Shown: positions 1 through 17,297, numbered from the stretch's first letter. The stretch is DNA of 47,876 nt from Acidimicrobiia bacterium (GCA_041746755.1 JBGTGL010000076.1:1-47876); one strand, 5' to 3'. Notes: generated from the letters alone by a model not told the origin. Translations and numbers: made by a program.

Positions 1-1109
1 ACCCCACCACCGGTGCGATTCTCACGCCGATCCACCAATCAACCACTTTCGTCCAGGACTCAGTGGACGAGTACATGTCGAAGGGGTATTCCTACTCCCG
101 CGCGGGGAACCCAACGGTCCGCGCATTTGAGGAAAAGCTGACCGCTCTGGAAGGCGGTCTCGACGCCACCGCCTATGGATCAGGGATGGCAGCAACCGTA
201 GGTGTATTTCTCGCACTCCTTCAAGCCGGTGACCACATCGTCATCGGGGACGTGGTCTACGGCGGCACTTACCGATTCGCCGATCAGTTCCTCCGCAAGT
301 TCGGAGTTGAGGTCTCTTTTGTCGATGCATCCGATCTTGATTCTGTGAAACGGGCGATCACACCTGCCACCAAACTGATCTTCACGGAAACTCCGGCCAA
401 TCCAACCCTAAAGCTGACCAATCTCGCGGCGGTTTCTTCGATTTGCAATGAGGCCGGGATTTTTCACGTCACCGACAACACGTTCCTGACCCCTTATTAC
501 CAGCGTCCCTTTGAACTCGGCGCCGACGTGATCATCCACTCCACTACCAAGTTCCTCGATGGGCACAATGCGACCTTGGGTGGAGCCGTGGTCGTGAACG
601 ACGCCTCGTTGCAGGAGAAGATTGCATTCGCTCGCATCTCCGCTGGGTTGGTGATGTCTCCGATGGTCGCCTGGCTGACCCTCCAAGGTACAAAAACACT
701 GAGTGAACGGATGGACCGCCAATCGTCTAACGCCATGGAACTCGCCCGCTGGCTCCAGGGCCACAACAAAGTCGAGTACGTCAACTACCCGGGTCTCGAG
801 GAACACCCCCAGCACGAACTGGCCTCGACGCAAGCTTCCGGTTATGGCGCAATGGTGTGTTTCGAGGTCAAGGGTGGGGTTTCCTCCGGCAAGGCTCTGA
901 TGGATGCAGTCGAGCTCTGGACACTCGCCGAGAATCTGGGCGCCGTCGAGTCGCTGATTACCCACCCGGCCACGATGACCCACGCGGCCATCCCCTATGA
1001 AGCACGCGTCGGCGCTGGAATCACAGACGGGCTGGTCAGACTCTCGGTCGGCCTCGAAGACGCAGAAGACCTCATCGCCGCCCTCGAAAAAGCGCTCCAG
1101 ACTTTATAG
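1..1109 (+). CDS. Cys/Met-metabolism PLP-dependent enzyme (cystathionine gamma-synthase/gamma-lyase family), 5' end cut by the window edge
   Basis: Track ORF 63..1109, but the same frame is open back to nt 3 (PTTGAILTPIHQSTTFVQDS), which matches the N-terminal region of this family. PLP-lysine motif HSTTKFLDGH. C-terminal LVRLSVGLED. Confidence 0.85.
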   Translation, partial: PTTGAILTPIHQSTTFVQDSVDEYMSKGYSYSRAGNPTVRAFEEKLTALEGGLDATAYGSGMAATVGVFLALLQAGDHIVIGDVVYGGTYRFADQFLRKFGVEVSFVDASDLDSVKRAITPATKLIFTETPANPTLKLTNLAAVSSICNEAGIFHVTDNTFLTPYYQRPFELGADVIIHSTTKFLDGHNATLGGAVVVNDASLQEKIAFARISAGLVMSPMVAWLTLQGTKTLSERMDRQSSNAMELARWLQGHNKVEYVNYPGLEEHPQHELASTQASGYGAMVCFEVKGGVSSGKALMDAVELWTLAENLGAVESLITHPATMTHAAIPYEARVGAGITDGLVRLSVGLEDAEDLIAALEKALQTL

Positions 1110-1173
1110 ATCGCGAAACCGGGGGTATCGACCACCTGGCCTCGCAGCATTTTGAGTCCAGAAGGGACCGGAA

Positions 1174-1569
1174 GTGAAAGGCCCGAGCCTCAAACCAAAG
1201 GTGGTGATCAGCACGGGAGTTGGTCTCCTCGCCCTTGTTGTTTTGCTCTACTCAACGGGGCCCAACCCGGAAACAGAATTCTCCGGAAGCGTCCGCCGGA
1301 TGGGTGGTCCCTGTCTCACTCTGGAGCAATGGGGGCTGCTCGGGTGGACCACCATCGGTCAGACCACCTCGATGACTCAGGCGACAACTGGCAAATGGCA
1401 GGTTCCCTCTGATGAGCTCGGATGCGATGATGTCGAGGACAGCCTGATTCTTGTGAGATTGCCGATTGGTTCAAGGCCAGACTCATATCGAATTTGCGGG
1501 GTCGCCGACGACACGGCGTGTCTGACTCTGCAGCTGGTGCCATTCGAGTCCACCGGCCCCGGACCGTAA
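1174..1569 (+). CDS. hypothetical protein with N-terminal hydrophobic anchor/signal and several Cys
   Basis: Track ORF 131 aa with GTG start preceded by GAAGGGA. Hydrophobic stretch VVISTGVGLLALVVLLY. No recognisable family. Confidence 0.35.
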   Translation: MKGPSLKPKVVISTGVGLLALVVLLYSTGPNPETEFSGSVRRMGGPCLTLEQWGLLGWTTIGQTTSMTQATTGKWQVPSDELGCDDVEDSLILVRLPIGSRPDSYRICGVADDTACLTLQLVPFESTGPGP

Positions 1570-1579
1570 CGACGCGTCG

Positions 1580-2365
1580 CTAAACGCTGATCCTCTCTGG
1601 TCCCGTATAGAGGGTGAAGCTGCCATCTCTCAGAAATCCGATGAGAGTCATGCCGAACTCCTCGGCCAGGTCGACGGCAAGACTTGATGCTGCCGAAACG
1701 CCGCACACCAGTGAAATCCCGGCGACCGCTGCCTTTTGGACTATTTCGAAAGATACCCTTCCCGATACGAGGAGCCCCAAGGGTGGCAGCGGCCATGTTC
1801 TCCTGGAAAGAGCCCCCACCAACTTGTCGGTCGCGTTGTGGCGGCCCACGACCTCGCGCGCATCGACTCTTCGGCCATCTCGATCGAAAGCGGCGGCGGC
1901 ATGGAGGCCTCCAGTGGTGCGGAAGGCCGACTGCATCTCCAACAACAATGGTGGAAGTGACAGAATCGTTCCGGCATCGACCACGGGCCCTCTCGGTGGG
2001 TATGCACCTGCAACCCGGATGGCGTCGATCGACGCTTTGCCACAAACCCCACAAGAGGAAGTCGAATAGAAGTTTCGCTGAAAGAGACCGGGATCGACTT
2101 CGACCCCATCGACGAGACGGACATCCCACCTTCCCTCACTGAGATCTTCGATAGCAGCCACCTCCTCCGGGCCATCGATGATCCCCTCGGTAATCGCAAA
2201 ACCCAGGATCAGGTCGGCGTCATCGCCGGGCGTCCTCATCAGCACCGCTAAAGGTGTTCCCGCCAGCCGAATCTCGAGTGGCTCCTCGACGACCAGGTGG
2301 TCGTCGGCAGCTTTCATTCCGTCGCGGACGCGAAAAACTCGACGTTGGGTGGTCGCCTCATCCAT
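1580..2365 (-). CDS. fdhD: formate dehydrogenase accessory sulfurtransferase FdhD
   Basis: 261 aa with FdhD-type motif SSCGVCGKASID. It is the last gene of the FDH operon and overlaps the upstream gene by 8 nt. Confidence 0.85.
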   Translation of the reverse strand: MDEATTQRRVFRVRDGMKAADDHLVVEEPLEIRLAGTPLAVLMRTPGDDADLILGFAITEGIIDGPEEVAAIEDLSEGRWDVRLVDGVEVDPGLFQRNFYSTSSCGVCGKASIDAIRVAGAYPPRGPVVDAGTILSLPPLLLEMQSAFRTTGGLHAAAAFDRDGRRVDAREVVGRHNATDKLVGALSRRTWPLPPLGLLVSGRVSFEIVQKAAVAGISLVCGVSAASSLAVDLAEEFGMTLIGFLRDGSFTLYTGPERISV

Positions 2366-3281
2366 CGTTGCCGCCGTTCACATACGCCCACCCGAACCGG
2401 CCCTTGATACACAGGTTGCCCAAGGTCACATCGTGGTCGTGAGGTGAGGTCACGTTGACGATCTCCCCGTCCTGGGTGTGGATATCGAGATTGCAACCAA
2501 CACCACAATATGAGCACACGGTGCGGGTGACTTCTTGCCGTTCCTCGGCCCACGCTCCAGTCTCGCGCATGTCGTATTCGACTTTGCCCATCAATGCCCC
2601 TGTCGGGCAGACAGCAATACAGTTCCCGCAATAGACACATGCAGAATCAGGCAAGGCGACGTCGAATTCGGTAGAAATGTGGGCATCGAAGCCGCGGCCA
2701 GCAACCGCTATGGCGAAGGTGTTCTGATGCTCTACACCGCAAGCATCGACACATCGATAGCACAGGATGCAACGTGCGTAATCACGCACGTAGAGATCAT
2801 CTTCGATTTTCGCAGGCTCGGCAACACACTCCGCCAATCCAAGGGCACCCAGCGAGTGATGGCCCGGTTCGGGGGGAAGGCGCGAAGATGGAGGCGACTT
2901 GGGCCCGAAACGATCCGGATCTGCACCAACAACATCGATCCACCCGGCCACATCGGCCCCCGACCTATCGAGCTCACTGGCAGATCCCAGTAGTTCCATC
3001 ACCAAACGCCGGCTGTGTTCGGCCCTCGTCGAATTGGTGTTGATCACCATCCCTTCCTCGAGCACTCGCGAACAAGAAGGGATCAGAGTGCGGGAGCCTT
3101 CGACCTCGACCACACAGACGCGGCAAGCGCTGGCGGCGGTCATGGTCGGGCCAAAGCAAAGTGTGGGGATTTCTACACCTGCGTTTCGGCACGCATCGAG
3201 GACGGTGCTGCCATCGGGGATGGCTATCGCAAGCCCATCGACGGTCGCACTCACACTTCGTGAGGCAAATTCGGTAGTCAT
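2358..3281 (-). CDS. formate dehydrogenase Fe-S module (N-terminal part of an FdsA/NuoG-like alpha subunit, encoded as a separate gene)
   Basis: Likely start is ATG at 3281 (MTTEFASRSV), overlapping the upstream stop as ATGA. 2Fe-2S-type Cys (CRNAG..LCFG..ACRVC). Two ferredoxin 4Fe-4S motifs (CILCYRCVDAC, CVYCGNCIAVCP). MopB N-terminal cluster CSYCGVGCNLD...LCIKG, then the protein ends. Confidence 0.8.
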   Translation of the reverse strand: MTTEFASRSVSATVDGLAIAIPDGSTVLDACRNAGVEIPTLCFGPTMTAASACRVCVVEVEGSRTLIPSCSRVLEEGMVINTNSTRAEHSRRLVMELLGSASELDRSGADVAGWIDVVGADPDRFGPKSPPSSRLPPEPGHHSLGALGLAECVAEPAKIEDDLYVRDYARCILCYRCVDACGVEHQNTFAIAVAGRGFDAHISTEFDVALPDSACVYCGNCIAVCPTGALMGKVEYDMRETGAWAEERQEVTRTVCSYCGVGCNLDIHTQDGEIVNVTSPHDHDVTLGNLCIKGRFGWAYVNGGNDG

Positions 3282-5059
3282 TGCGACACCCCGGCGAGTC
3301 CCAGACGGATCGCTGACTGGATCGCCGAGGCCGCTGTCTGTCCTAGCCCACAAATCGAAGCGTCGGTCATCACCTTCGCCAGATCATCGAGACGAGCGCG
3401 TTCATCCTGAAGAGTCCCCAGCGTCCGCCCTTCGCTAATCCGGTGTAAGGCCTCCTCCTGGCGCACCGTCCCGATGCGACAGGGAACGCATTGTCCACAC
3501 GACTCGTCACGGAAAAACCGAGCAATGCGCTGCAATACCCGAACGAAATCGGTGGTCTCGTCAAAAACGACAATGGCACCCGACCCCAATGTGGTGTTCG
3601 CCTCGCGCACTCCCTCGAAGCTGAGCGGAATGGCTCCCATGCCTTCCGTAACGAAACTCCCCGCCGCTCCTCCCATGAGAACTGCACGTGTACCGCCGGC
3701 TCCAGATAGTTCGAGGAGTTCCCCCAGGGTGGTGCCGAAGGGGACCTCAAACACCCCGGGTCGGGCGACATCACCAGAAACACAGAACAACTTCGTCCCC
3801 TTCGACTGCTCTGTTCCGATGGAAGCAAAGGCCTCGGCCCCGATACTCAGAACTTCGAGGACGGCGACCAGGGTTTCGATGTTGTTGATCCCGGTGGGTT
3901 TCCCGAACAGCCCACTCTGGGTTGGAAATGGCGGCTTCTGACGGGGCTCACCCCGATAACCCTCGATCGAAGCGAACAACGCCGTCTCCTCGCCACAGAT
4001 GTAGGCGCCGGCACCCCTTCGCACCTCGAGGTCGAAGGCGAAACCGGCTCCTGCCACGTCATTGCCCAACAGGCCTGCCTCATATGCCTGTTCGATGGCG
4101 CCAACAAGTCGCCTTTCGGCCGTTGGATATTCACCCCGCACATAGATGTATCCGTGGTCGGCACCGGCTACGTACCCATAAACGGTCATCGCCTCGACCA
4201 CCGCAAACGGATCACCCTCCATCAAGACCCGGTCCTTGAAAGTCCCCGGCTCGGATTCATCGCCGTTGGCAACCACATATTTCTCGGTGCCCGAAGCATC
4301 TCTCAGGCCTCGCCACTTGGTGCCGATCGGGAAGGCGGCCCCACCCCTTCCCCTCAATCCGGAAGCCTCGAGTTCTGTGATCGTCGCTTCGAAACCCAAC
4401 TCCAGGGCCCTGCTCAAACCCAGGTAGCCTCCCGCATCTTGATAGGCAACGAGACTGGCCGGGTTGACCTCTCCGATCCGACGCAGCAGTCGCAACTCGG
4501 ATCGGTCCTGATGAATCACCGCACCGGGCAGGTCACCAATCGGGACCTCCCCGAGCCCTCGTGGCCCCACCGGGGCATCGGGCGTACACCCTTGCCCGGC
4601 AGCCTGATACATCACAGCCGGAGCCCGATCACACTGACCGAGACAGGGGCTCAGTTCGAATTCGAATGAGTGCTGCTCGGCTTGGGCCAAAACTTCGTCT
4701 GCCGCACGAGCGCAGACGATGTCGTCACAAACGTGTACCACCGGTTTTGCGCTCCGACCGGCGCGAAACAAGGAGTAGAAAGTGGCAACGCCGTATACCT
4801 CGGCGGGCGGCACCGTGAGCCGTTCCGAGATGTAGCCAAGAGCCCCCTGGGTGATACTGCCGGTGGCGTCCTGCACGGCATGTAGCGCCGGAAGCAGCAG
4901 GTGACGCCGGGCGCGAGCGGCTTGACCCCCGTAGGCGACATGGCCGTCCAAACGAGAGAATTCCCCACCGGTCCAGCCCGACTCGGGGGGACCGAGGACA
5001 AGGTCAACCGCCGATCGCTCCACCTCGTTCGGTTGGACGAGGAGTGAGCGGATGTCCAT
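3278..5059 (-). CDS. NuoE-like/NuoF-like fusion protein (FdsG-FdsB type NAD/FMN diaphorase subunit)
   Basis: Track ORF 3278..5488. The realistic start is ATG at 5059 (MDIRSLLVQ), which shares one nt with the upstream stop (TGATG). NuoE-type Cys VCDDIVC...SPCLGQC. NuoF motifs GLRGRGGAAFPIGTKW and ESCGQCVPCRIGT. Confidence 0.85.
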   Translation of the reverse strand: MDIRSLLVQPNEVERSAVDLVLGPPESGWTGGEFSRLDGHVAYGGQAARARRHLLLPALHAVQDATGSITQGALGYISERLTVPPAEVYGVATFYSLFRAGRSAKPVVHVCDDIVCARAADEVLAQAEQHSFEFELSPCLGQCDRAPAVMYQAAGQGCTPDAPVGPRGLGEVPIGDLPGAVIHQDRSELRLLRRIGEVNPASLVAYQDAGGYLGLSRALELGFEATITELEASGLRGRGGAAFPIGTKWRGLRDASGTEKYVVANGDESEPGTFKDRVLMEGDPFAVVEAMTVYGYVAGADHGYIYVRGEYPTAERRLVGAIEQAYEAGLLGNDVAGAGFAFDLEVRRGAGAYICGEETALFASIEGYRGEPRQKPPFPTQSGLFGKPTGINNIETLVAVLEVLSIGAEAFASIGTEQSKGTKLFCVSGDVARPGVFEVPFGTTLGELLELSGAGGTRAVLMGGAAGSFVTEGMGAIPLSFEGVREANTTLGSGAIVVFDETTDFVRVLQRIARFFRDESCGQCVPCRIGTVRQEEALHRISEGRTLGTLQDERARLDDLAKVMTDASICGLGQTAASAIQSAIRLGLAGVSQ

Positions 5060-6942
5060 CAGGAGACCGCCTCGACGCGCACAGCTGTTGCTTTGAACTC
5101 CGCGGTCCCAGACTTTGGATCCCACGCGTCGATCGTCAACACGTTGACATCGGTGTCGTCGGGAAAATGGACCGACATAAAGGCCAGCCCGGGGCGTAGT
5201 GACCGCTCGATCCGAACCGGAGCTTCGATACTTCCGCGTCGCGATGTCACCCTCACCCGCTGCCCCTCGGCCACACCAAGCGACACTCCGTCTTCCGGGG
5301 AAATATCGAGCACGCCATGAATGCGTCGCGGCGCCGAATACCGCCCGCTTTGTACTCCGGTGTTGTAGGAATCGAGACGACGCCCGGTGGTGAGCCGCAT
5401 GGGGAATTCCTCGGTGAGAGTGTCTACGGGAGCCGCCCACTCCACGGCGTGAAACGGCGCTGGCTCGCCCCCGATCGGACGCTCCCACAATCTGGCATGG
5501 AGATAGAGGGAACCGGGATGGGACTCATCAGGGCAGGGCCATTGCAGACCACCAGATTCTGCCAAGCGTTCGTATGACATTCCTCCATGCATGGGAGATA
5601 CCTGCCGGAGTTCATCCCACGCCTCCTCGGCAGACGGTGTCTGCCAGCTATGGCCCATTGCCCTGGCGAGCAGGGATAACAACTCGATGTCACCCTCAGC
5701 ATCACCCGGCGGATCAATTGCCTTCCGAACCCGTTGCACGCGACGCTCGCTCGAAGTGAAGGTGCCCTCGCACTCGCCCCACCCGGCCGCAGGAAGGACT
5801 ACGTCGGCCAACTCGGCGGTGGCCGTCAAGAAGATGTCCTGGACCACCATGAAGTCGAGATTCTCCAGCCTCCGTCTCATGTTTTTGCTGTCGGCTTCCG
5901 ACTGCAGCGGATTCTCACCGAGAATAAAAAGTGCTGTCAGGTCCCCCTCATCCATCGCCTCATGCATCTCGCTGATGTGCTTCCCTGCGCGGGACGGAAT
6001 CTCACTCCCCCAAACTGCTTCAAACTGAGCGCGGACCCGAGTGTCCTCGACATCTTGAAAACCGGGCAGCTTGTTGGGAAGGGCGCCCATATCTCCCCCG
6101 CCCTGGACATTGTTCTGGCCCCGGATCGGGACGAGGCCAGAGCCATAGCGGCCAACGTGGCCGGTTAGAAGTGCCAGATTGATCAAGGCGAGGACATTGT
6201 CAGTGGCGTTGTGGTGTTCGGTGATACCAAGCGTCCAACACAGTTGGGCAGTTTCGGCTGATCCATACTCATGAGCGAGTTGGCGAATCGCGTCGGCGGG
6301 GACCCGCGTAATTTCTTCGGCCCGACTCAAGGTGTATTTGTCAACGCACGCGGCGTAGTCTTCAAACCCGGTAGTGGCTGCTTCGATGAACTCCCTATCG
6401 ACCATCCGTTGTTCGATGATTTCACGACCTACCGCGTTGGCGAGAGCTATGTCGGACCCGACGTCTATCCCCAACCAAACATCAGCCCACTCTGCCGTAC
6501 CGGTACGCCGGGGATCGACGGCGAACATTCGGGCGCCGTTGTGAATCCCCTTGAGAGCATGCTGAAAGAAGATGGGATGAGCGTCGCGGGCGTTCGACCC
6601 CCACATGACGATGAGATCAGTCTGTTCGATTTCCTGATACGAACTGGTTCCACCACCCGCTCCAAACACAGCCGCCAGACCGGCGACCGAAGGAGCGTGT
6701 CAGGTGCGGTTGCAGCTATCTATGTTGTTGCTCCCCATCACCACACGGGCGAACTTCTGAGCCAAATAGTTGGTCTCATTGGTCGCCTTGGAGCAGCTGA
6801 GTAACCCGAATGCATCCCCGCGATGGGGAGCTAGACCCTCAGCAGCAACGGCAACCGCCCGATCCATCGAAGTTGGACGCAGGACGCCATCTTGACGAAT
6901 CAGCGGACGATCGAGGCGTGCGTAGTTGCGTTTCATCATCAC
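5059..6942 (-). CDS. fdhA: formate dehydrogenase molybdopterin catalytic subunit containing selenocysteine (UGA at 6700..6702 decoded as Sec)
   Basis: Track ORFs 6700..6942 and 5059..6669 are in the same frame, separated only by TGA plus 10 sense codons. The joined sequence reads NNIDSCNRT-U-HAPSVAGLAAVFG, like E. coli FdhF NNVDCCARVUHGPSVAGL. RGQNNVQGGGDMGALPN also present. Strong SD GGAAGGAGG, so the true start is probably ATG at 6939 or 6936. Confidence 0.85.
6669..6689 (-). promoter_or_regulatory. SECIS-like hairpin downstream of the Sec UGA
   Basis: mRNA sense CGGUCGCC-GGUCU-GGCGGCUG, starting 11 nt after the UGA. The 8-bp stem includes G-U pairs. The apical GGUCU matches the E. coli fdhF SECIS apex (GCAGGUCUGC). 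Confidence 0.6.
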
Positions 6943-7095
6943 CTCCTTCCTGAGCGTTGCATCGGAGAGTACAACGCCTCAGGCGAGGCGGCAGGGAGGA
7001 GAACCCTCACCCGGCGACGCTGACAACCCTGGGTTCGGAGCGTCGCCACCCGACGCTCACAGCCCACAGAACCCGGTTTGGTCAGACGCCCGGTG

Positions 7096-8616
7096 TTAGC
7101 CGAACTCGAGGCCCTGGGCGAGAGGAAGATCGTCTCCGTAGTTGATGGTCGTGGTCTGCCGGCGCATGTACGCCTTCCAGGCGTCGGAACCGGCTTCGCG
7201 CCCCCCGCCGGTTTCCTTTTCACCGCCGAAGGCGCCCCCAATTTCCGCGCCTGAAGTTCCGATGTTGACGTTGGCGATTCCGCAGTCAGATCCAACCGCG
7301 CTGAGGAACTTCTCGGCGTTGCGCATCGACTCGGTGAATATCGCTGAGGAAAGGCCCTGAGTGACACCGTTCTGGATTTCGATCGCCTCGTCGAGAGTTT
7401 CGAACTCCGTGACCCAGAGAATCGGAGCAAAAGTCTCCTGTTGGGTGATCGAGGCGCCCTTGGGCACCACCGCAATGGTCGGCTCGACGAAGAAACCGGG
7501 ACGATCGATGCGATTTCCACCAGTCACAACCCTGGCACCCTGTTCCCGCCCGATCTCCAGTGCGGTCATCATCTGTTCGATGGCTTGCTCTCCGGCCACC
7601 GGACCCATCAGTGTGCCAGCTTCTAGGGGATCGCCAATCGGGATGGTCTTGTAGGCCTCTGCGAGTCGGTCAATCATCTTGTCAGCGATGGCCCGATGAA
7701 CCAGAAGCCTGCGAAGTGATGTGCACCGTTGGCCGGCGGTACCGACCGCTGAGAACAGGGCAGCCCGTACTGCGAGGTCGAGGTCAGCATCATCCATCAC
7801 AATGACCGCGTTGTTTCCTCCGAGTTCGAGAATGCTCCGTCCCATTCGTTGCGCAACTGCGGGCCCGACGATCCGCCCCATGTTGCATGACCCGGTTGCA
7901 GAGATGAGTGGGAGGCGGGTGTCGTGATTCATCGCGTTGCCGACTGTCTTCCCATCGCCAACCACGAGATTGAACAGGCCCTCGAACCCTGAACCTTCCA
8001 TGACCTGGGCTGCGATCTTGGTAACAGCGATGGCTGTGAGCGGAGTCCGTTCCGACGGTTTCCAGACCACGGTGTCACCACAGACGGCTGCGATAGCCGC
8101 ATTCCAAGACCAGACGGCCACCGGGAAATTGAAAGCCGAAATCACGCCGACCGGGCCTAATGGATGCCAATGCTCATACATTCTGTGATCGGGGCGCTCC
8201 GAAGCCATGGTGTTGCCGTAAAGCTGACGGCTGAGACCTACGGCGAAATCACAGATGTCCACCATCTCCTGGACTTCCCCGATACCTTCGGGGAGGATCT
8301 TGCCCATCTCCAAGGTGACCAGAGCACCAAGGGTCTCCTCGTTGGCCCGGAGGGCATCGCCGAGCTTTCGGATGTATTCGCCTCGCTTGGGAGCTGGAAG
8401 CCTGCGCCACTTCAGGAAGGTCTCGGTGGAATTGGCGACCACCTTCTCATAGTCTCCAACCGAACCCATCGCCACGGAGGCGAGGACCTCCCCGGTGGTC
8501 GGGTTGACGACATCGATTGATTCGCCAGTCGCCGGTAGCCACTCGCCGGCAAAGACGCCTGAGTTGACTTCCTCGATTCCCAACTCTCCAAAGATTTGAT
8601 CTTTAGTCATCGTCAT
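7096..8616 (-). CDS. aldehyde dehydrogenase, ALDH7/piperideine-6-carboxylate (aminoadipate semialdehyde) dehydrogenase-like
   Basis: 506 aa. GEVQEMVDICDFAVGLSRQLYG (antiquitin-like), LELGGNNA (catalytic Glu), GTAGQRCTSLRR (catalytic Cys). Confidence 0.8.
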   Translation of the reverse strand: MTMTKDQIFGELGIEEVNSGVFAGEWLPATGESIDVVNPTTGEVLASVAMGSVGDYEKVVANSTETFLKWRRLPAPKRGEYIRKLGDALRANEETLGALVTLEMGKILPEGIGEVQEMVDICDFAVGLSRQLYGNTMASERPDHRMYEHWHPLGPVGVISAFNFPVAVWSWNAAIAAVCGDTVVWKPSERTPLTAIAVTKIAAQVMEGSGFEGLFNLVVGDGKTVGNAMNHDTRLPLISATGSCNMGRIVGPAVAQRMGRSILELGGNNAVIVMDDADLDLAVRAALFSAVGTAGQRCTSLRRLLVHRAIADKMIDRLAEAYKTIPIGDPLEAGTLMGPVAGEQAIEQMMTALEIGREQGARVVTGGNRIDRPGFFVEPTIAVVPKGASITQQETFAPILWVTEFETLDEAIEIQNGVTQGLSSAIFTESMRNAEKFLSAVGSDCGIANVNIGTSGAEIGGAFGGEKETGGGREAGSDAWKAYMRRQTTTINYGDDLPLAQGLEFG

Positions 8617-8993
8617 CGCGCAGCCACCACTTCCATCTCTACCAGGAACCCTCCCGGCAAGGCGCCAGCCTGGAAAGTGGACCGAGCTGGCGGTTCATCG
8701 TCGAAATAGGCTCCATATGCCTCGTTGACCTCGGCGAAAGAACCGATATCGGCAAGGAAAATGTTGGTTTTGACAATGTCGGAGTAGGACAGCCCGAGGT
8801 CGCCCAGGATGCTTCCGAGGTTTTGCATCACCCGGTGCGCTTGCGCCGTCACATCATCGGGTTCTCGTTCGCCGGTTGAAGGGTTGATCGCAACCTGGCC
8901 CGATACGAAAACGAATCCATTCGCCTCGGTGGCGACGGAGTAAGGACCCATCGGCTTCGGTGCCGACGGAGTGTTTGGGACGGTCTTGGGCAC
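8613..8993 (-). CDS. ridA: RidA/YjgF family reactive-intermediate deaminase
   Basis: 126 aa with typical RidA layout (PKPMGPYS...FVSGQVA...TNIFL...ARSTFQAGALP...VEMEVVA). 4-nt overlap with the downstream ALDH gene. Confidence 0.8.
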   Translation of the reverse strand: MPKTVPNTPSAPKPMGPYSVATEANGFVFVSGQVAINPSTGEREPDDVTAQAHRVMQNLGSILGDLGLSYSDIVKTNIFLADIGSFAEVNEAYGAYFDDEPPARSTFQAGALPGGFLVEMEVVAAR

Positions 8994-9055: not shown

Positions 9056-9418
9056 CTAGGAGAAGGAGTTGCCGCAGCCGCAGGAGCGAGTGACATTTGG
9101 ATTCTCGATGGCGAATCCAGCACCCATCAGTCCGTCCTTGTAATCGAGAACTGATCCCTTCACCATCTCGGCACTCTCTGGGTCGACAACAACCCTGATA
9201 TCGCCTGCTGCCTCGACGATATCGACCTCGTCGATCTCGCTGTCGAAGTACATCTCGTAGGAAAAGCCAGAGCATCCACCGGGGCGAACCGCCATCCGCA
9301 ATGCCAGACTGGTGTCTCCCTCAGCTGCGATGAGTTCGCCGATCTTGAGGGCGGCGTTGTCGGTGACAGTGACGACCTTCTGGGGCTGATTTGATTTGAT
9401 GCTTAAAACTTGTGTCAT
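9056..9418 (-). CDS. erpA: HesB/IscA/ErpA family iron-sulfur cluster insertion protein
   Basis: Track ORF 9056..9724. The family-length protein starts at ATG 9418 (MTQVLSIK). GGCSGFSYEM and C-terminal CGCGNSFS motifs. Confidence 0.85.
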   Translation of the reverse strand: MTQVLSIKSNQPQKVVTVTDNAALKIGELIAAEGDTSLALRMAVRPGGCSGFSYEMYFDSEIDEVDIVEAAGDIRVVVDPESAEMVKGSVLDYKDGLMGAGFAIENPNVTRSCGCGNSFS

Positions 9419-9496
9419 GATCTTGACCTCATTGTAACCGGCGTCCACCCTATTCAACCACCCCGGTAGGACGAATCTTCCATCTACCCTGAGAGT

Positions 9497-10636
9497 GTGG
9501 TCACAAGAGAGACCGTCCTCAAGGCACTCGAGGGAGTGCGTGATCCCGAATTGGGCGGCAACGTCGTTGAACTCGGGATGATCAGTGATGTCACAATCAG
9601 GGGAGGCGATGTGGAGATCGGCCTCGCGCTGACCGTCGCCGAGTGTCCGTTGCGCAACCAGATCGAGAATGACACCAGTCGCCGGGTTGCCAATCTTCCT
9701 GGAGTCGACGACGTAGTGGTTCACACCACAGCAATGACCAAGAAACAGCGGGCAAATCTCATGTCGGTAGCGCGGAGTCAGGCCCGAGCCAAGGCCGACC
9801 CCACGCAGGTTTCCCCGACAACTCGCGTCATCGCCGTTGGGTCCGGCAAGGGTGGCGTTGGCAAATCCTCGGTTTCGGTAAATGTCGCCGTTGCCATGGC
9901 CGCAATGGGTTTCCGGGTGGGGCTGCTCGATGCCGACATCTGGGGTTTCTCAGTTCCTCGCATGATGGGGATCAGTGGGCGGCTCGAAGCAAGCGATCAG
10001 ACCAAGTTGATCGAGCCGATACAGGCCCACGGCGTCAAGGTTGTCTCCACAGGACTGATAGTCGAGACCGAGGAAACCGCACTGATGTGGCGCGGGTTGA
10101 TGCTCTCCAAGGCCTTGGAGCAATTTCTGCAACAGGTCAATTGGGGAGAACTCGACTATCTGATCATCGATTTGCCGCCGGGGACCGGAGATGTGCAAAT
10201 GGCGCTGAGCAGGATGCTGCCTCAAGCTGAGATGGCCGTGGTGACCACACCGCAGCGGGCGGCACAGAAGGTGGCGGTGCGGGTGGCCGATATGGCTCGA
10301 CGCTCTCACATGCCCGTAGTCGGCGTTATCGAAAATATGTCCAGCTTCGACTGCTCCTGTGGCGAAATCCACCACCTATTCGGTCAGGGTGGCGGCGAAG
10401 AGTTGGCTTCGGACCTGGGGGTGCCTCTGGTTGCGAGTATTCCCCTCGACGTCCATGTAGTCCCCGGCGGGGACGAGGGGATGCCTGTTGTCCTCGGTGA
10501 CCCCGGATCGGCCGGCGCCGTCGCATTCACCAAGACGGCCGAGACTTTGGTTGCGCTGGTCCCGCCAGCAGACATGGAAACCTGCACCGGCCGGATCGCC
10601 AAGATGCTCGCCGAGTTGGACGCCCAACCGGTTTAG
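9497..10636 (+). CDS. mrp: Mrp/ApbC/NBP35 family Fe-S cluster carrier ATPase with N-terminal DUF59/MIP18 domain
   Basis: 379 aa. DPELGGNVVELGMI (DUF59), deviant Walker A GSGKGGVGKSS, CxxC (FDCSCGE). Confidence 0.9.
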   Translation: MVTRETVLKALEGVRDPELGGNVVELGMISDVTIRGGDVEIGLALTVAECPLRNQIENDTSRRVANLPGVDDVVVHTTAMTKKQRANLMSVARSQARAKADPTQVSPTTRVIAVGSGKGGVGKSSVSVNVAVAMAAMGFRVGLLDADIWGFSVPRMMGISGRLEASDQTKLIEPIQAHGVKVVSTGLIVETEETALMWRGLMLSKALEQFLQQVNWGELDYLIIDLPPGTGDVQMALSRMLPQAEMAVVTTPQRAAQKVAVRVADMARRSHMPVVGVIENMSSFDCSCGEIHHLFGQGGGEELASDLGVPLVASIPLDVHVVPGGDEGMPVVLGDPGSAGAVAFTKTAETLVALVPPADMETCTGRIAKMLAELDAQPV

Positions 10637-14184: not shown

Positions 14185-15531
14185 ATGAGCGAATCTGATT
14201 CCGGTTTCCGGAGCCTTCCATCTGTTGATGCGCTCGCTGCGACGATCGATGCTCCCGAGATGGGTCACGGCCAGATCGTGGAGATTGCGAGGACCGCGAT
14301 TGACCTCGCCCGCGCCCGGCTCAAGGACAATGACAACGTCGACCCCAGGGACCTAGCCGAGGAGTTGCTCGCGGCGTCACGTTCCCGGCGGCAACACGAG
14401 GTGATCAACGCAACCGGCGTACTCCTCCACACCAATCTGGGCCGTGCCCCGCTTGCCCAACACGTTGTCGAAGCAGCCTCATTGGCCGCAAGCGCCTACA
14501 CCAACACCGAATTCGACTTGTTGACCGGCGAGCGTGGCCACCGCGGTGCCAACACCACCGAACTCCTGAAGCTCCTCACCGGGGCTGAAGACGCCCTCGT
14601 CGTCAACAACAACGCTGCGGCAGTACTGCTTGCCCTGACTGCCATCGCGGGAACTCGGGGCGTTCCGGTTTCACGAAGTGAGTTGGTCGAGATAGGTGGC
14701 TCATACCGCCTCCCCGACGTGATCGGTTCCAGCGGTGCCAGGCTGATCGAGGTGGGTACCACCAACAAGACGAGGCTAAGCGACTACGAGACCGCACTCC
14801 AGATTCACGACTGCGCGATGGTGCTCAAGGTTCATCAGGCCAATTTCAAGATTCAGGGATTTACCGCATCGGTGGGTGCCGAGGAACTGGCACGATTGTG
14901 TCGGGCTCGCCATGTCCCGCTCGTCTACGACGTCGGCTCCGGTCTCCTCGATTCGGGGACGCCTTGGCTACCGCATCGGCCGGCGTGGCTGAGAGATGAG
15001 CCGGGCATCCGACAGGCGCTAGACGCGGGGGCAGATCTAGCAATGTTCAGCGGCGACAAGCTTCTCGGCGGCCCACAGGCCGGCATCGTCGTTGGCGATG
15101 CCCGTCTCATCTCAATGATGCGTGACCATCCTCTGAGAAGAGCCCTCCGGGTGGACAGTGCAACGGACGCAGCTCTGGCATCAACCCTCGACTCGTACGC
15201 TCGAAGGGACGCCGGCAGCGAGATCCCGTTCTGGAAAATGGTTTCCCTGTCGTACGAAGAGCTCAAGGGGCGCTCCGATCAGGTCGCGTCCCGCATTAAT
15301 GCATCCGTCGAAGAAGGCTTTTCGATGGTTGGCGCCGGGAGCGCACCGGGAGCCCAGATCGCTAGCCCTGTGATAAGACTCCCCGGCGGCCAACATTTGT
15401 TTGCTCAGCTCCTCAGTGGCCCTATTCCCGTTGTCGCCCGACGGGACCGGGGCGACCTGCTCATCGACTTGAGGGCGGTCGACCCTTCTCGCGACGAAAC
15501 GACAGCACAGGCAATCTTGAAATGCCTCTAG
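14185..15531 (+). CDS. selA: L-seryl-tRNA(Sec) selenium transferase SelA
   Basis: 448 aa. N-terminal LPSVDAL motif and PLP-lysine motif FSGDKLLGGPQAG, identical to the motif I recall for E. coli SelA. Confidence 0.9.
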   Translation: MSESDSGFRSLPSVDALAATIDAPEMGHGQIVEIARTAIDLARARLKDNDNVDPRDLAEELLAASRSRRQHEVINATGVLLHTNLGRAPLAQHVVEAASLAASAYTNTEFDLLTGERGHRGANTTELLKLLTGAEDALVVNNNAAAVLLALTAIAGTRGVPVSRSELVEIGGSYRLPDVIGSSGARLIEVGTTNKTRLSDYETALQIHDCAMVLKVHQANFKIQGFTASVGAEELARLCRARHVPLVYDVGSGLLDSGTPWLPHRPAWLRDEPGIRQALDAGADLAMFSGDKLLGGPQAGIVVGDARLISMMRDHPLRRALRVDSATDAALASTLDSYARRDAGSEIPFWKMVSLSYEELKGRSDQVASRINASVEEGFSMVGAGSAPGAQIASPVIRLPGGQHLFAQLLSGPIPVVARRDRGDLLIDLRAVDPSRDETTAQAILKCL

Positions 15532-17297
15532 TCGGCACTGCCGGACATGTCGACCACGGCAAGTCCACGCTTGTTCAAGCATTGACAGGGCGCGACCCTG
15601 ATCGATGGGCGGAGGAGAAGCGGCGTGGCCTGACAATCGATCTCGGATTTGCCTGGGCCGACCTGGGCCACGGAGTGGTGGTGTCGTTCGTAGATGTCCC
15701 CGGACATGAGCGTTACCTCAAGAACATGCTGGCTGGTGTGGAATCTGTAGAGATAGCTTTGTTGGTGGTTGCAGCCAACGAAGGTTGGAAGCCGCAGACC
15801 GAGGAGCATCTTGCGGTCCTCGACCTTCTCGAAGTGAGGAACGGTGTTGTCGCCCTTACTAAAACCGACATCGTCGATCATGACTTGGCCGAGTTGGAAG
15901 CACTCGAGGCAGAGGACAAACTGGTCGGCACCAGTCTCGAGGGGTCGGCCGTCATCGCGGTTTCGGCGGTGACAGGTCAAGGTCTTGAAGCTCTACGCGC
16001 TGAGCTGGCACGACTTGCCTCCCGCACGCCGATAGAAACCGGGCGTCCACGCCTCTGGATAGATCGCGTTTTCAGCGTCTCCGGCGCCGGGACCGTCGTA
16101 ACAGGGTCGCTCCTCGGTGGGAAGATTTCGGTCGGGGATGACCTCGAGCTGTACCCGGGCGGCAAAGCGCGCGTCCGAACTATTCAGAGCCACGAGGAAG
16201 ACGTCACCACCGGCGAACCAGGCCGTAGAACAGCCCTCGGACTCGCTGGTATCGACACCGGGGCTATCGAGCGGGGAACCATGATTGGCTACCCGGGCGA
16301 ATGGAACTTAAGCGACCGGTTCAGCGCGAGTGTCCGCCTGGCCCGGTATATCGACGAATTACCTGACCGCGGCGCCTATCAGATTCACATCGGCACCCTC
16401 GCCCGAAACGTGACGATCGAGGCTCGGGAGGATGATCGCGCAATCCTTCGCCTGACCGAACCGGTGCCGGTGGCAATGGGAGATCGGTTCATTATCCGCG
16501 ACAGTGGTAGGCGGATGGTGGCCGCGGGCGGGCGCGTCCTTGACCCGCATCCGGGACGAAGGAAAAGGGCATTAGCCGAATCTCGAGACTTGAGGGCTGA
16601 AGGGACTGCAGACGAGAAAGCAACTCAACTGCTTGGTTTGCGGGGTTCAGCCACCGTGGTCGACCTGGAACGGGACTCCGGCGGTGGACGGCCCTCGGCC
16701 GGGATAGAAATCGCCGGAACGGTGATCACCGATATTCAGATGGAGGAATTCCAGCAAATCGCAGTCCATCTCGTGGAAGAGGAACACTCGACGAAGCCGC
16801 TGAATCCGGGTTTGCCCTTGGCGACTCTCAGCACACGGCTCAAAGTGCCTGCAGAGATTGGCGAAGCGGTGGTGAAGCGGACAGGGTCTTTGGAGTTGCG
16901 CGGGCCCGACGTTGCGCTGGTCAGTCACAACCCGACCCTGTCCCCACAACTGGAAGAAGAGTGGGCAGCTGTCAGATCGAAACTGCAACGTGGCCTGGCT
17001 GTCCCCACGACGAACGAACTCGGTCTCGACGTCGAGACCATTCATCTCCTCCTCCGCAACCGGGACCTGGTCAGGATTAGCGATGACCTGGTATTTCTAC
17101 CCGGTCAGCTCGACGAGATCGTGACGGCCGTTGCAGAACTAAACCCCCCATTTTCGGTGGGCGATTTCAAAGAAAAGCTCGGACTGTCCCGAAAGTATGC
17201 AATGCCACTTCTGGAGTGGCTGGACAACAACAGCTACACGATCCGGCGAGGTGATCAGAGGGTTTTCGGTGGCCGACTACCTCGAAACGACCAATGA
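15522..17297 (+). CDS. selB: selenocysteine-specific translation elongation factor SelB
   Basis: 591 aa. GTPase motifs GTAGHVDHGKSTL, DVPGHERY, TKTD. Long C-terminal extension consistent with winged-helix mRNA-binding domains. 10-nt overlap with selA. Confidence 0.9.
   Translation: MPLVGTAGHVDHGKSTLVQALTGRDPDRWAEEKRRGLTIDLGFAWADLGHGVVVSFVDVPGHERYLKNMLAGVESVEIALLVVAANEGWKPQTEEHLAVLDLLEVRNGVVALTKTDIVDHDLAELEALEAEDKLVGTSLEGSAVIAVSAVTGQGLEALRAELARLASRTPIETGRPRLWIDRVFSVSGAGTVVTGSLLGGKISVGDDLELYPGGKARVRTIQSHEEDVTTGEPGRRTALGLAGIDTGAIERGTMIGYPGEWNLSDRFSASVRLARYIDELPDRGAYQIHIGTLARNVTIEAREDDRAILRLTEPVPVAMGDRFIIRDSGRRMVAAGGRVLDPHPGRRKRALAESRDLRAEGTADEKATQLLGLRGSATVVDLERDSGGGRPSAGIEIAGTVITDIQMEEFQQIAVHLVEEEHSTKPLNPGLPLATLSTRLKVPAEIGEAVVKRTGSLELRGPDVALVSHNPTLSPQLEEEWAAVRSKLQRGLAVPTTNELGLDVETIHLLLRNRDLVRISDDLVFLPGQLDEIVTAVAELNPPFSVGDFKEKLGLSRKYAMPLLEWLDNNSYTIRRGDQRVFGGRLPRNDQ

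Follow-up and report, generated by a model that had tools for sequence, protein, structure and literature searches.

On the minus strand of a 47,876-nucleotide (nt) stretch of Acidimicrobiia DNA, the whole of which is called the window here, lies a formate dehydrogenase (FDH) operon with the gene order fdhA-fdhB-fdhC-fdhD, in which a NuoE-NuoF fusion gene stands between the two halves of an FdsA-like alpha subunit, the C-terminal half being encoded first. We consider it very likely that the operon is intact and specifies a soluble, cytoplasmic, three-subunit enzyme of the type named FDH3 in Actinomycetospora chiangmaiensis DSM 45062 (Rohwerder et al., 2020, Front Microbiol 11:691; PMC7176365), and that the swapped order is fixed family-wide. 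The layout is real but common to many bacteria, and it was already described in 2020; judged from its sequence, the window appears to hold an Acidimicrobiia member of a widespread, described split type of selenocysteine (Sec)-dependent, presumably NAD-linked FDH.

Open reading frame (ORF) listing and translation of the minus strand gave the following features (aa, amino acids; bp, base pairs; Fe-S, iron-sulfur; FMN, flavin mononucleotide; SECIS, selenocysteine insertion sequence):

5059..6939, minus strand: catalytic subunit, FdhA3-like, 626 aa; molybdenum/tungsten (Mo/W)-bis-pterin domains II-IV of an FdhF/FdsA-type FDH, without a proximal 4Fe-4S domain of its own
6700..6702, minus strand: in-frame TGA, Sec codon, residue 80 counted from the ATG at 6939; assigned from the orthologue alignment and from selA/selB in the window
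6658..6697, minus strand: SECIS-like hairpin directly 3' of the TGA, with a lower helix, an upper helix of 6-8 bp and the apical loop GGUCU
3278..5059, minus strand: diaphorase subunit, FdhB3-like, 593 aa; NuoE-like [2Fe-2S] domain fused to a NuoF-like FMN/NAD(H)/[4Fe-4S] domain
2358..3281, minus strand: Fe-S subunit, FdhC3-like, 307 aa; [2Fe-2S], two ferredoxin-type [4Fe-4S] and the C-terminal proximal [4Fe-4S] domain of molybdopterin enzymes
1580..2365, minus strand: FdhD, sulfurtransferase/maturation factor for the FDH bis-pterin cofactor, assigned with Pfam and TIGR00129

The gene order and coordinates given in an earlier note on this DNA were recovered by the ORF listing, except that its fdhA start at 6942 is one of three candidates (GTG 6942, ATG 6939 or ATG 6936, with a GGAGG at 6946..6942), which leaves this start ambiguous. 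The junctions it had named also hold when read base by base: fdhA and fdhB meet in TGATG (5061..5057), fdhB and fdhC in ATGA (3281..3278), and the fdhC stop and the fdhD start lie in an 8-nt overlap (2365..2358). A promoter and terminator consensus scan of 1100..7300 gave matches no more numerous than in shuffled sequences, and the operon boundaries are therefore drawn from gene spacing alone.

Domain Content of the Subunits

In the Pfam scan the catalytic protein gave Molybdopterin (3.7e-59) and Molydop_binding (3.6e-26), and Molybdop_Fe4S4 (PF04879) was absent from it. Compared with solved structures, it aligns to residues 309-931 of FdsA, 61-688 of Escherichia coli FdhF and 62-709 of the FdhF of the hydrogen-dependent CO2 reductase (HDCR); its translation contains the active-site motif NIDSCNRT-U-HAPSVAGL and the arginine motif PIRGQNNVQG, and the U/C-His motif is invariant across 71 orthologues. 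The 307-aa Fe-S protein carries Fer2_4 at residues 8-84, a Fer4 pair at 167-230 and Molybdop_Fe4S4 at 250-302, and aligns to FdsA 24-303. By these alignments, the break in the FdsA-like alpha subunit falls precisely where its 4Fe-4S domain gives way to the molybdopterin domain, in the linker that follows the proximal-cluster domain, and the Fe-S and catalytic genes taken together tile one canonical alpha subunit without loss. Against the NCBIfam model TIGR01591 (Fdh-alpha), the catalytic protein scores 653.1 bits over profile positions 52-672 and narrowly misses the cut-off of 666.25, because its first domain is encoded by another gene; the Fe-S protein covers positions 1-49 with 48.1 bits. 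Neither chain passes this cut-off alone, and both chains together would pass it.

The middle protein contains the Pfam domains 2Fe-2S_thioredx, Complex1_51K, SLBB and NADH_4Fe-4S and scores 425 bits with TIGR01959 (nuoF); its PDB matches are NuoF/HydB/FdsB-type chains, including the beta fusion of Methylorubrum extorquens FDH1 (7e5z_B). No extra ferredoxin (Fer4) domain was found in it by the Pfam scan, and the chain ends 8 aa past NADH_4Fe-4S. The FdhD protein matches FdhD-NarQ (8.1e-62) and passes TIGR00129 (160.3 bits; cut-off 140.9). The ligand motifs of the four clusters of the Fe-S subunit and of the diaphorase clusters are all visible in the translations. These domain scans, which the earlier note had proposed, bear out its view of the three proteins: a catalytic part that begins at about residue 60 of FdhF and lacks the N-terminal cluster, a NuoE-NuoF fusion in one ORF, and a 307-aa Fe-S module with a 2Fe-2S, two 4Fe-4S and a terminal MopB cluster motif, so that FdsA is divided in two with its C-terminal half upstream; FdhD, as it had also said, comes last in the order.

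Could the catalytic protein belong to another molybdopterin oxidoreductase, for example an assimilatory nitrate reductase (NasC/NasA-like) to which the NuoEF/Fe-S module serves as NADH-linked donor? The NasC and NasA models do match over the full length, with 413.6 and 363.4 bits, but these scores fall far under their cut-offs (1100 and 1000) and well under the 653 bits of the FDH model. Moreover, the FdhF U/C-His dyad and RGQNNVQG are present, fdhD is translationally coupled, the top solved relatives are all formate dehydrogenases, and selenium-dependent formate removal is reported for a cultured carrier (PMC7176365). We regard this possibility as very improbable.

Conservation of the Swapped Order

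The 84 related loci that were fetched served as tblastn targets for the four window proteins. Scanning GTDB with a single genome per species gave at least 600 candidate loci; the split was verified in the best 80 of these, with 55-77% identity to the window Fe-S protein, the other 520 or more being left out. The synteny comparison that the earlier note had suggested gave a uniform picture: in every one of the 84 loci with enough flank, the catalytic, NuoEF and Fe-S genes stand in this order on one strand, at 55-81% identity. The loci come from separate assemblies, finished chromosomes among them. The Fe-S ORF stops 0-40 aa past the 4Fe-4S domain in 84/84 loci, and the 2Fe-2S, both ferredoxin and the proximal-cluster motifs are likewise kept in all of them. 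Among the matches listed, at least 120 relatives of the Fe-S protein at 70% identity or more have a length of about 300-310 aa and all end with PF04879; they come mostly from Acidimicrobiia metagenome-assembled genomes (MAGs). Four metagenome contigs with 70-71% identical copies show the same order catalytic, NuoEF, Fe-S, FdhD, while over the family as a whole fdhD may lie downstream, upstream, on the opposite strand or nowhere in the flank. A start candidate with a 4-nt overlap of the NuoEF stop is found in 56/79 loci and a catalytic-to-NuoEF gap of at most 10 nt in 54/67, both statistics taking the start codon nearest the upstream stop and being biased in this way towards short gaps. On this comparative evidence, the swapped order is an ancient, fixed trait of a large bacterial family and not a local rearrangement.

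Among the cultured carriers are Amycolatopsis azurea, Kutzneria sp. 744, two Pseudonocardia species, Umezawaea, Nocardiopsis, Actinomycetospora rhizophila and Halopolyspora. Carrier MAGs include ones labelled Gemmatimonadota, Acidobacteriota/Terriglobia, Hyphomicrobiales, Thermomicrobiales, Bacillota, Verrucomicrobiia and Eisenbacteria, labels that may reflect binning errors. A complete bacterial-type operon (55-63% identity) also stands in a locus labelled 'Candidatus Micrarchaeaceae archaeon' (DATLRQ010000161.1), and this archaeal label is probably a binning error. The plasmid collection yielded nothing but canonical fused FdsA/FdhF (33-35% identity) and not one split member. The nearest non-split relatives in a 50%-identity representative protein library, which contains many fragments and frameshifted calls, are fused Sec-type FdhA proteins of 35-40% identity cut at their own TGA. 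Two of them (P0191 and P0214), cut in this way by gene callers and ending in ...DHCARL and ...DNSARL, imitate a separate Fe-S subunit yet retain about 80 aa of the molybdopterin domain. At one related locus (L034), a second, unrelated Sec-containing FDH paralogue (QIENQARI-TGA-HSATV) lies downstream of the Fe-S gene, at 5962..6411.

These comparisons also bear on the view that the arrangement is a misassembly, a recent inversion or a decaying pseudogene cluster, in which the TGA and the truncated alpha subunit would mean loss of function. Gene callers indeed cut the catalytic gene at the TGA in related contigs, leaving pieces of 78-92 aa and about 540 aa, and the catalytic protein alone stays below the TIGR01591 cut-off (653.1 vs 666.25). 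However, 84 independent loci, taken from different assemblies that include finished chromosomes, show the identical order, and the TGA at 6702..6700 is the single interruption of the fdhA frame, the window genes having no other stops or frameshifts. It falls at the exact active-site column, where Cys codons are its sole replacement; the hairpin behind it is conserved, as are all ligands of the four remaining clusters; and the equivalent proteins were found by proteomics in a cultured relative (PMC7176365). The comparative data thus refute misassembly or decay, to which we assign practically no probability. The earlier note's opinion that the genes form a functional, co-translated unit rather than a decaying one is strengthened by the 84/84 conservation, by the Sec/Cys exchange at the active site and by the coupling common in the family.

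Selenocysteine Decoding

In the orthologue alignment, the active-site codon is TGA in 67/71 loci and TGC or TGT (Cys) in the remaining four, which belong to Umezawaea, Nocardiopsis, A. azurea and Kutzneria; Sec is the majority state in the family and Cys the exception. The RNA 3' of the TGA forms a predicted hairpin with a minimum free energy of -28.4 kcal/mol, and its SECIS-like core helix is 98-100% paired across 65 distinct sequences. Compensatory changes from C-G to G-C occur in 7/65 sequences, another pair alternates between U-G, C-G and U-A, and the covariation score is higher than in any of the 500 shuffles or the slid controls. The apical loop GGUCU is invariant, the codons GGT CTG being fixed in the Sec forms; in the four Cys forms these loop codons vary (GGG TTG, GGG CTG, GGC CTG). 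Two genes for Sec synthesis and incorporation lie outside the operon, 7.2 kb from fdhA, with a mutual overlap of 10 nt (15522..15531):

14185..15531, plus strand: selA, selenocysteine synthase (TIGR00474, 429.8 bits; cut-off 267.9)
15522..17297, plus strand: selB, Sec-specific elongation factor (TIGR00475, 342 bits; cut-off 242.25)

Given the Cys codons in orthologues, the conserved hairpin with its compensatory changes and the nearby selA and selB, the TGA is, as far as sequence can tell, a selenocysteine codon. No SECIS family or tRNA-Sec matched the window at the Rfam gathering thresholds, and ARAGORN run on the 48-kb window returned tRNA-Pro only and no tRNA-Sec.

Loss of the His-Ligated Cluster

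None of the four ligands of the His-ligated 4Fe-4S cluster A4 of FdsA is kept in the Fe-S protein, the H/C/C/C set being replaced, and the corresponding segment holds no more than one Cys in 84/84 related loci. In Acidimicrobiia members, this segment is followed by an insertion of 15-30 aa (GPKSPPSSRLPPEPGHH...). In the Rhodobacter capsulatus enzyme (RcFDH), A4 (His117/Cys121/124/130) lies off the Mo-to-FMN pathway, at the FdsA-FdsA dimer interface (PMC7171172). Hence, loss of A4 should leave the electron chain intact, and by analogy it probably removes the FdsA-FdsA-type dimer contact. The family suggests that the His-ligated cluster of FdsA is dispensable.

Relation to FDH3 and Other Known Enzymes

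According to the 2020 description (Table 1, Fig. 2C and Suppl. Fig. S4 of PMC7176365), FdhA3 of A. chiangmaiensis has 640 aa with U80 and shows homology to the AM1 and H16 alpha subunits in their metallopterin C-terminal domain only, FdhC3 (316 aa) is 'separate but homologous' to the N-terminal Fe-S domain of the AM1/H16 alpha, and FdhB3 (614 aa) has NuoE-like and NuoF-like halves as in the AM1 beta subunit. FDH3 was predicted to be a cytoplasmic NAD+-reducing enzyme; FdhA3, FdhB3 and FdhC3 were all found in the proteome and rose 2-3 fold on formate-yielding 2-hydroxyisobutyrate, and formate removal by this organism was selenite-dependent in vivo (PMC7176365). The window trio shows the same sizes and domains, with 626 aa and U80 against about 640 aa and Sec80, a 593-aa NuoE+NuoF fusion against about 614 aa, and a separate 307-aa Fe-S protein against about 316 aa, this likeness being one to the published description. 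In the congener A. rhizophila (locus L036) the order is the same and the three proteins match those of the window at 62/54/56% identity; their lengths come to about 646, 633 and 310-392 aa, varying with the start codon assumed. Actinomycetospora Fe-S proteins form a 90% cluster of 310-316 aa. The published FDH3 accessions are WP_084681743.1, WP_018332443.1 and WP_018332444.1, and the comparison is with their description.

The two systems differ in their hosts (Acidimicrobiia in the window, Actinomycetes for FDH3) and in that fdhD is translationally coupled downstream in the window, its position being variable in the family; PMC7176365 discusses neither the swapped order nor the missing His-ligated cluster nor how broad the family is. 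The earlier note knew of no described enzyme with this arrangement; this part of it falls, FDH3 having been described in 2020 down to its U80 (PMC7176365). The note had itself allowed that a common, already annotated subtype would remove the novelty and leave the annotation in place, and the 84 loci, PMC7176365 and the database names lead to just this outcome. Searches of the FDH literature for a split, permuted or NuoE/NuoF-fused type and for Sec in Acidimicrobiia gave nothing relevant besides PMC7176365 and its supplement, and in those portions of recent FDH papers that term searches reached, the split type is unmentioned.

FdsGBACD of R. capsulatus and Cupriavidus necator (PDB 6TGA/6TG9, 6VW7; PMC7171172) shares with the window enzyme the bis-pterin Mo centre, the proximal 4Fe-4S, two ferredoxin 4Fe-4S and the 2Fe-2S, as well as the NuoF-type 4Fe-4S with FMN, the NuoE-type 2Fe-2S and the FdhD/FdsC maturation factor. 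Unlike the two swapped genes and Sec of the window, FdsA is one polypeptide with an active-site Cys, and it carries 4x[4Fe-4S] and 1x[2Fe-2S] including A4, which the window lacks. FdsG and FdsB are separate, whereas the window has one 593-aa ORF; no FdsD was identified in the window, and identity is only about 33-37%. The tungsten FDH1 of M. extorquens AM1 (Fdh1AB; PDB 7E5Z/7VW6), likewise soluble and NAD-linked, shares the NuoE-NuoF fusion in its beta subunit (7e5z_B, 572 aa, E 2e-89), a fusion also recorded in the supplement of PMC7176365, but its alpha is a single 989-aa polypeptide with the Fe-S domains in cis and with Cys and W, not Sec. The closest solved catalytic domains are those of E. 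coli FdhF (FDH-H, PDB 1AA6/1FDO; E 1e-142) and Thermoanaerobacter kivui HDCR FdhF (7QV7; E 1e-150). Sec-His and the SECIS hairpin directly after UGA are common to FdhF and the window, but both FdhF proteins have an N-terminal 4Fe-4S domain of their own (residues 1-60) and hydrogenase modules as partners instead of a NuoEF diaphorase.

To the published description our analysis adds the order and split fixed across at least 84 loci and several phyla, the family-wide lack of the His-ligated cluster, covariation support for the SECIS hairpin, the Sec majority with Cys as exception, and the finding that curated models narrowly miss the catalytic subunit due to the split. Since the catalytic gene is routinely cut at its Sec codon and falls under the FDH cut-off, annotations of the trio are unspecific or mistaken (HndD, NADH dehydrogenase, '2Fe-2S cluster-binding protein'). 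For the Fe-S subunit, the database names range over '2Fe-2S iron-sulfur cluster-binding protein', 'NAD-dependent formate dehydrogenase iron-sulfur protein', 'HndD', 'NADH dehydrogenase' and 'formate dehydrogenase subunit alpha'. Annotating the three genes together as a single FDH corrects reconstructions of one-carbon metabolism in many Actinomycetota, including marine Acidimicrobiia. The family may also be read as a natural experiment, suggesting that a partner subunit can supply the proximal-cluster domain of a molybdopterin enzyme. As the architecture is already published, a trans-supplied cluster and a dispensable A4 will hardly surprise specialists.

Proposed Mechanism

The sequence itself shows the Sec codon, the His and the Arg; the steps proposed here follow by homology. 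The catalytic subunit would oxidise formate at its bis-pterin metal (Mo or W), with Sec80 as ligand, and the C-terminal 4Fe-4S domain of the Fe-S subunit is predicted to dock onto this subunit in trans, replacing the cis N-terminus of FdhF/FdsA. The next electron carriers would be the two ferredoxin-type 4Fe-4S clusters and the 2Fe-2S of the Fe-S subunit, followed in the NuoF-like half by the N3-type 4Fe-4S and FMN, with NAD+ as acceptor; the NuoE-like 2Fe-2S cluster may lie off this pathway. By homology with RcFDH, the clusters of the Fe-S subunit would be A1 (proximal, C-terminal domain), A2 and A3 (the ferredoxin pair) and A5 (2Fe-2S). Linkage to NAD as acceptor is probable, as judged from the subunit sequences. 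FdhD presumably sulfurates and inserts the cofactor, so that the catalytic subunit would be matured with it, and SelB would decode the UGA through the downstream SECIS hairpin.

Several points weigh against this proposal. Homology is the source for the NAD+ acceptor, the stoichiometry, the choice between Mo and W and the docking of the proximal cluster in trans, and the equation with A. chiangmaiensis FDH3 is built on sizes, U80, the domain description and the congener locus. The genes selC (tRNA-Sec) and selD are absent from the 48-kb window. To our knowledge, no split-type enzyme has been purified and none has been solved structurally. In addition, HydB-type chains from bifurcating enzymes are a slightly better match to the NuoF-like half than FdsB is.

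This last point leads to an electron-bifurcating or confurcating FDH of the HylABC-FdhF2/HydABC type, which would couple formate oxidation to the reduction of both NAD+ and ferredoxin. In the PDB, the NuoF-like half comes closest to the B subunits of hydrogenases that bifurcate and of related enzymes (7t2r_B, 9bov_B, 7q4v_B, 8a6t_B; E 1e-114 to 1e-106), C. necator FdsB being weaker (2e-95), and a separate NuoG/HydA-like Fe-S subunit is also found in HylABC/HydABC-type complexes. However, B subunits of bifurcating HydABC carry a C-terminal 2x[4Fe-4S] ferredoxin domain, whereas Pfam gives none in the window diaphorase, which closes with residue 593 just past the N3-type cluster; the alignments to the PDB B chains, each of about 600 aa, extend only to about their residue 516. 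Furthermore, the His-ligated cluster is missing from the Fe-S subunit, and the family occurs mainly in aerobic Actinomycetota. A bifurcating mechanism is unlikely, and we would give it only a slight chance.

Within the NAD-linked FDH3-type reading we further speculate, though we find it rather doubtful, that the family is the only branch of molybdopterin oxidoreductases in which the proximal 4Fe-4S is delivered in trans, that the catalytic subunit might be matured separately with FdhD before docking onto a preassembled diaphorase/Fe-S module, and that the gene order might be a relic of a tandem duplication of a beta-alpha operon with loss of both ends. Such duplication and deletion would explain the swapped order. 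Should this speculation hold, a widespread, probably oxygen-exposed, Sec-dependent and NAD-linked FDH of aerobic Actinomycetota is structurally unstudied and under-annotated by pipelines.

Genomic Neighbourhood

Directly upstream of the FDH operon and on the same strand (7096..8993, minus), separated from the FDH start by a 156-nt gap, lie genes for an aldehyde dehydrogenase and a Rid-family deaminase; the former passes the model for L-piperidine-6-carboxylate dehydrogenase (764.5 bits; cut-off 730). The region 9056..10636 encodes an IscA/HesB-type Fe-S carrier (minus strand, C-terminal CGCGNSFS) and an Mrp/ApbC-like P-loop Fe-S carrier (plus strand), both identified by eye from the translation only; the two stand 2-4 kb from the FDH operon, which requires Fe-S clusters.

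The neighbourhood differs in four related Acidimicrobiia contigs (9728..16930 in L001/L002 and 9815..16906 in L003/L004), where the FDH operon is followed by a major facilitator superfamily transporter and an IclR regulator, and where the same stretches hold a cluster of an MttB-family methyltransferase, MTHFR, the corrinoid activase RACo and a pterin-binding protein. This setting suggests that formate arises there from the demethylation of methylated amines.

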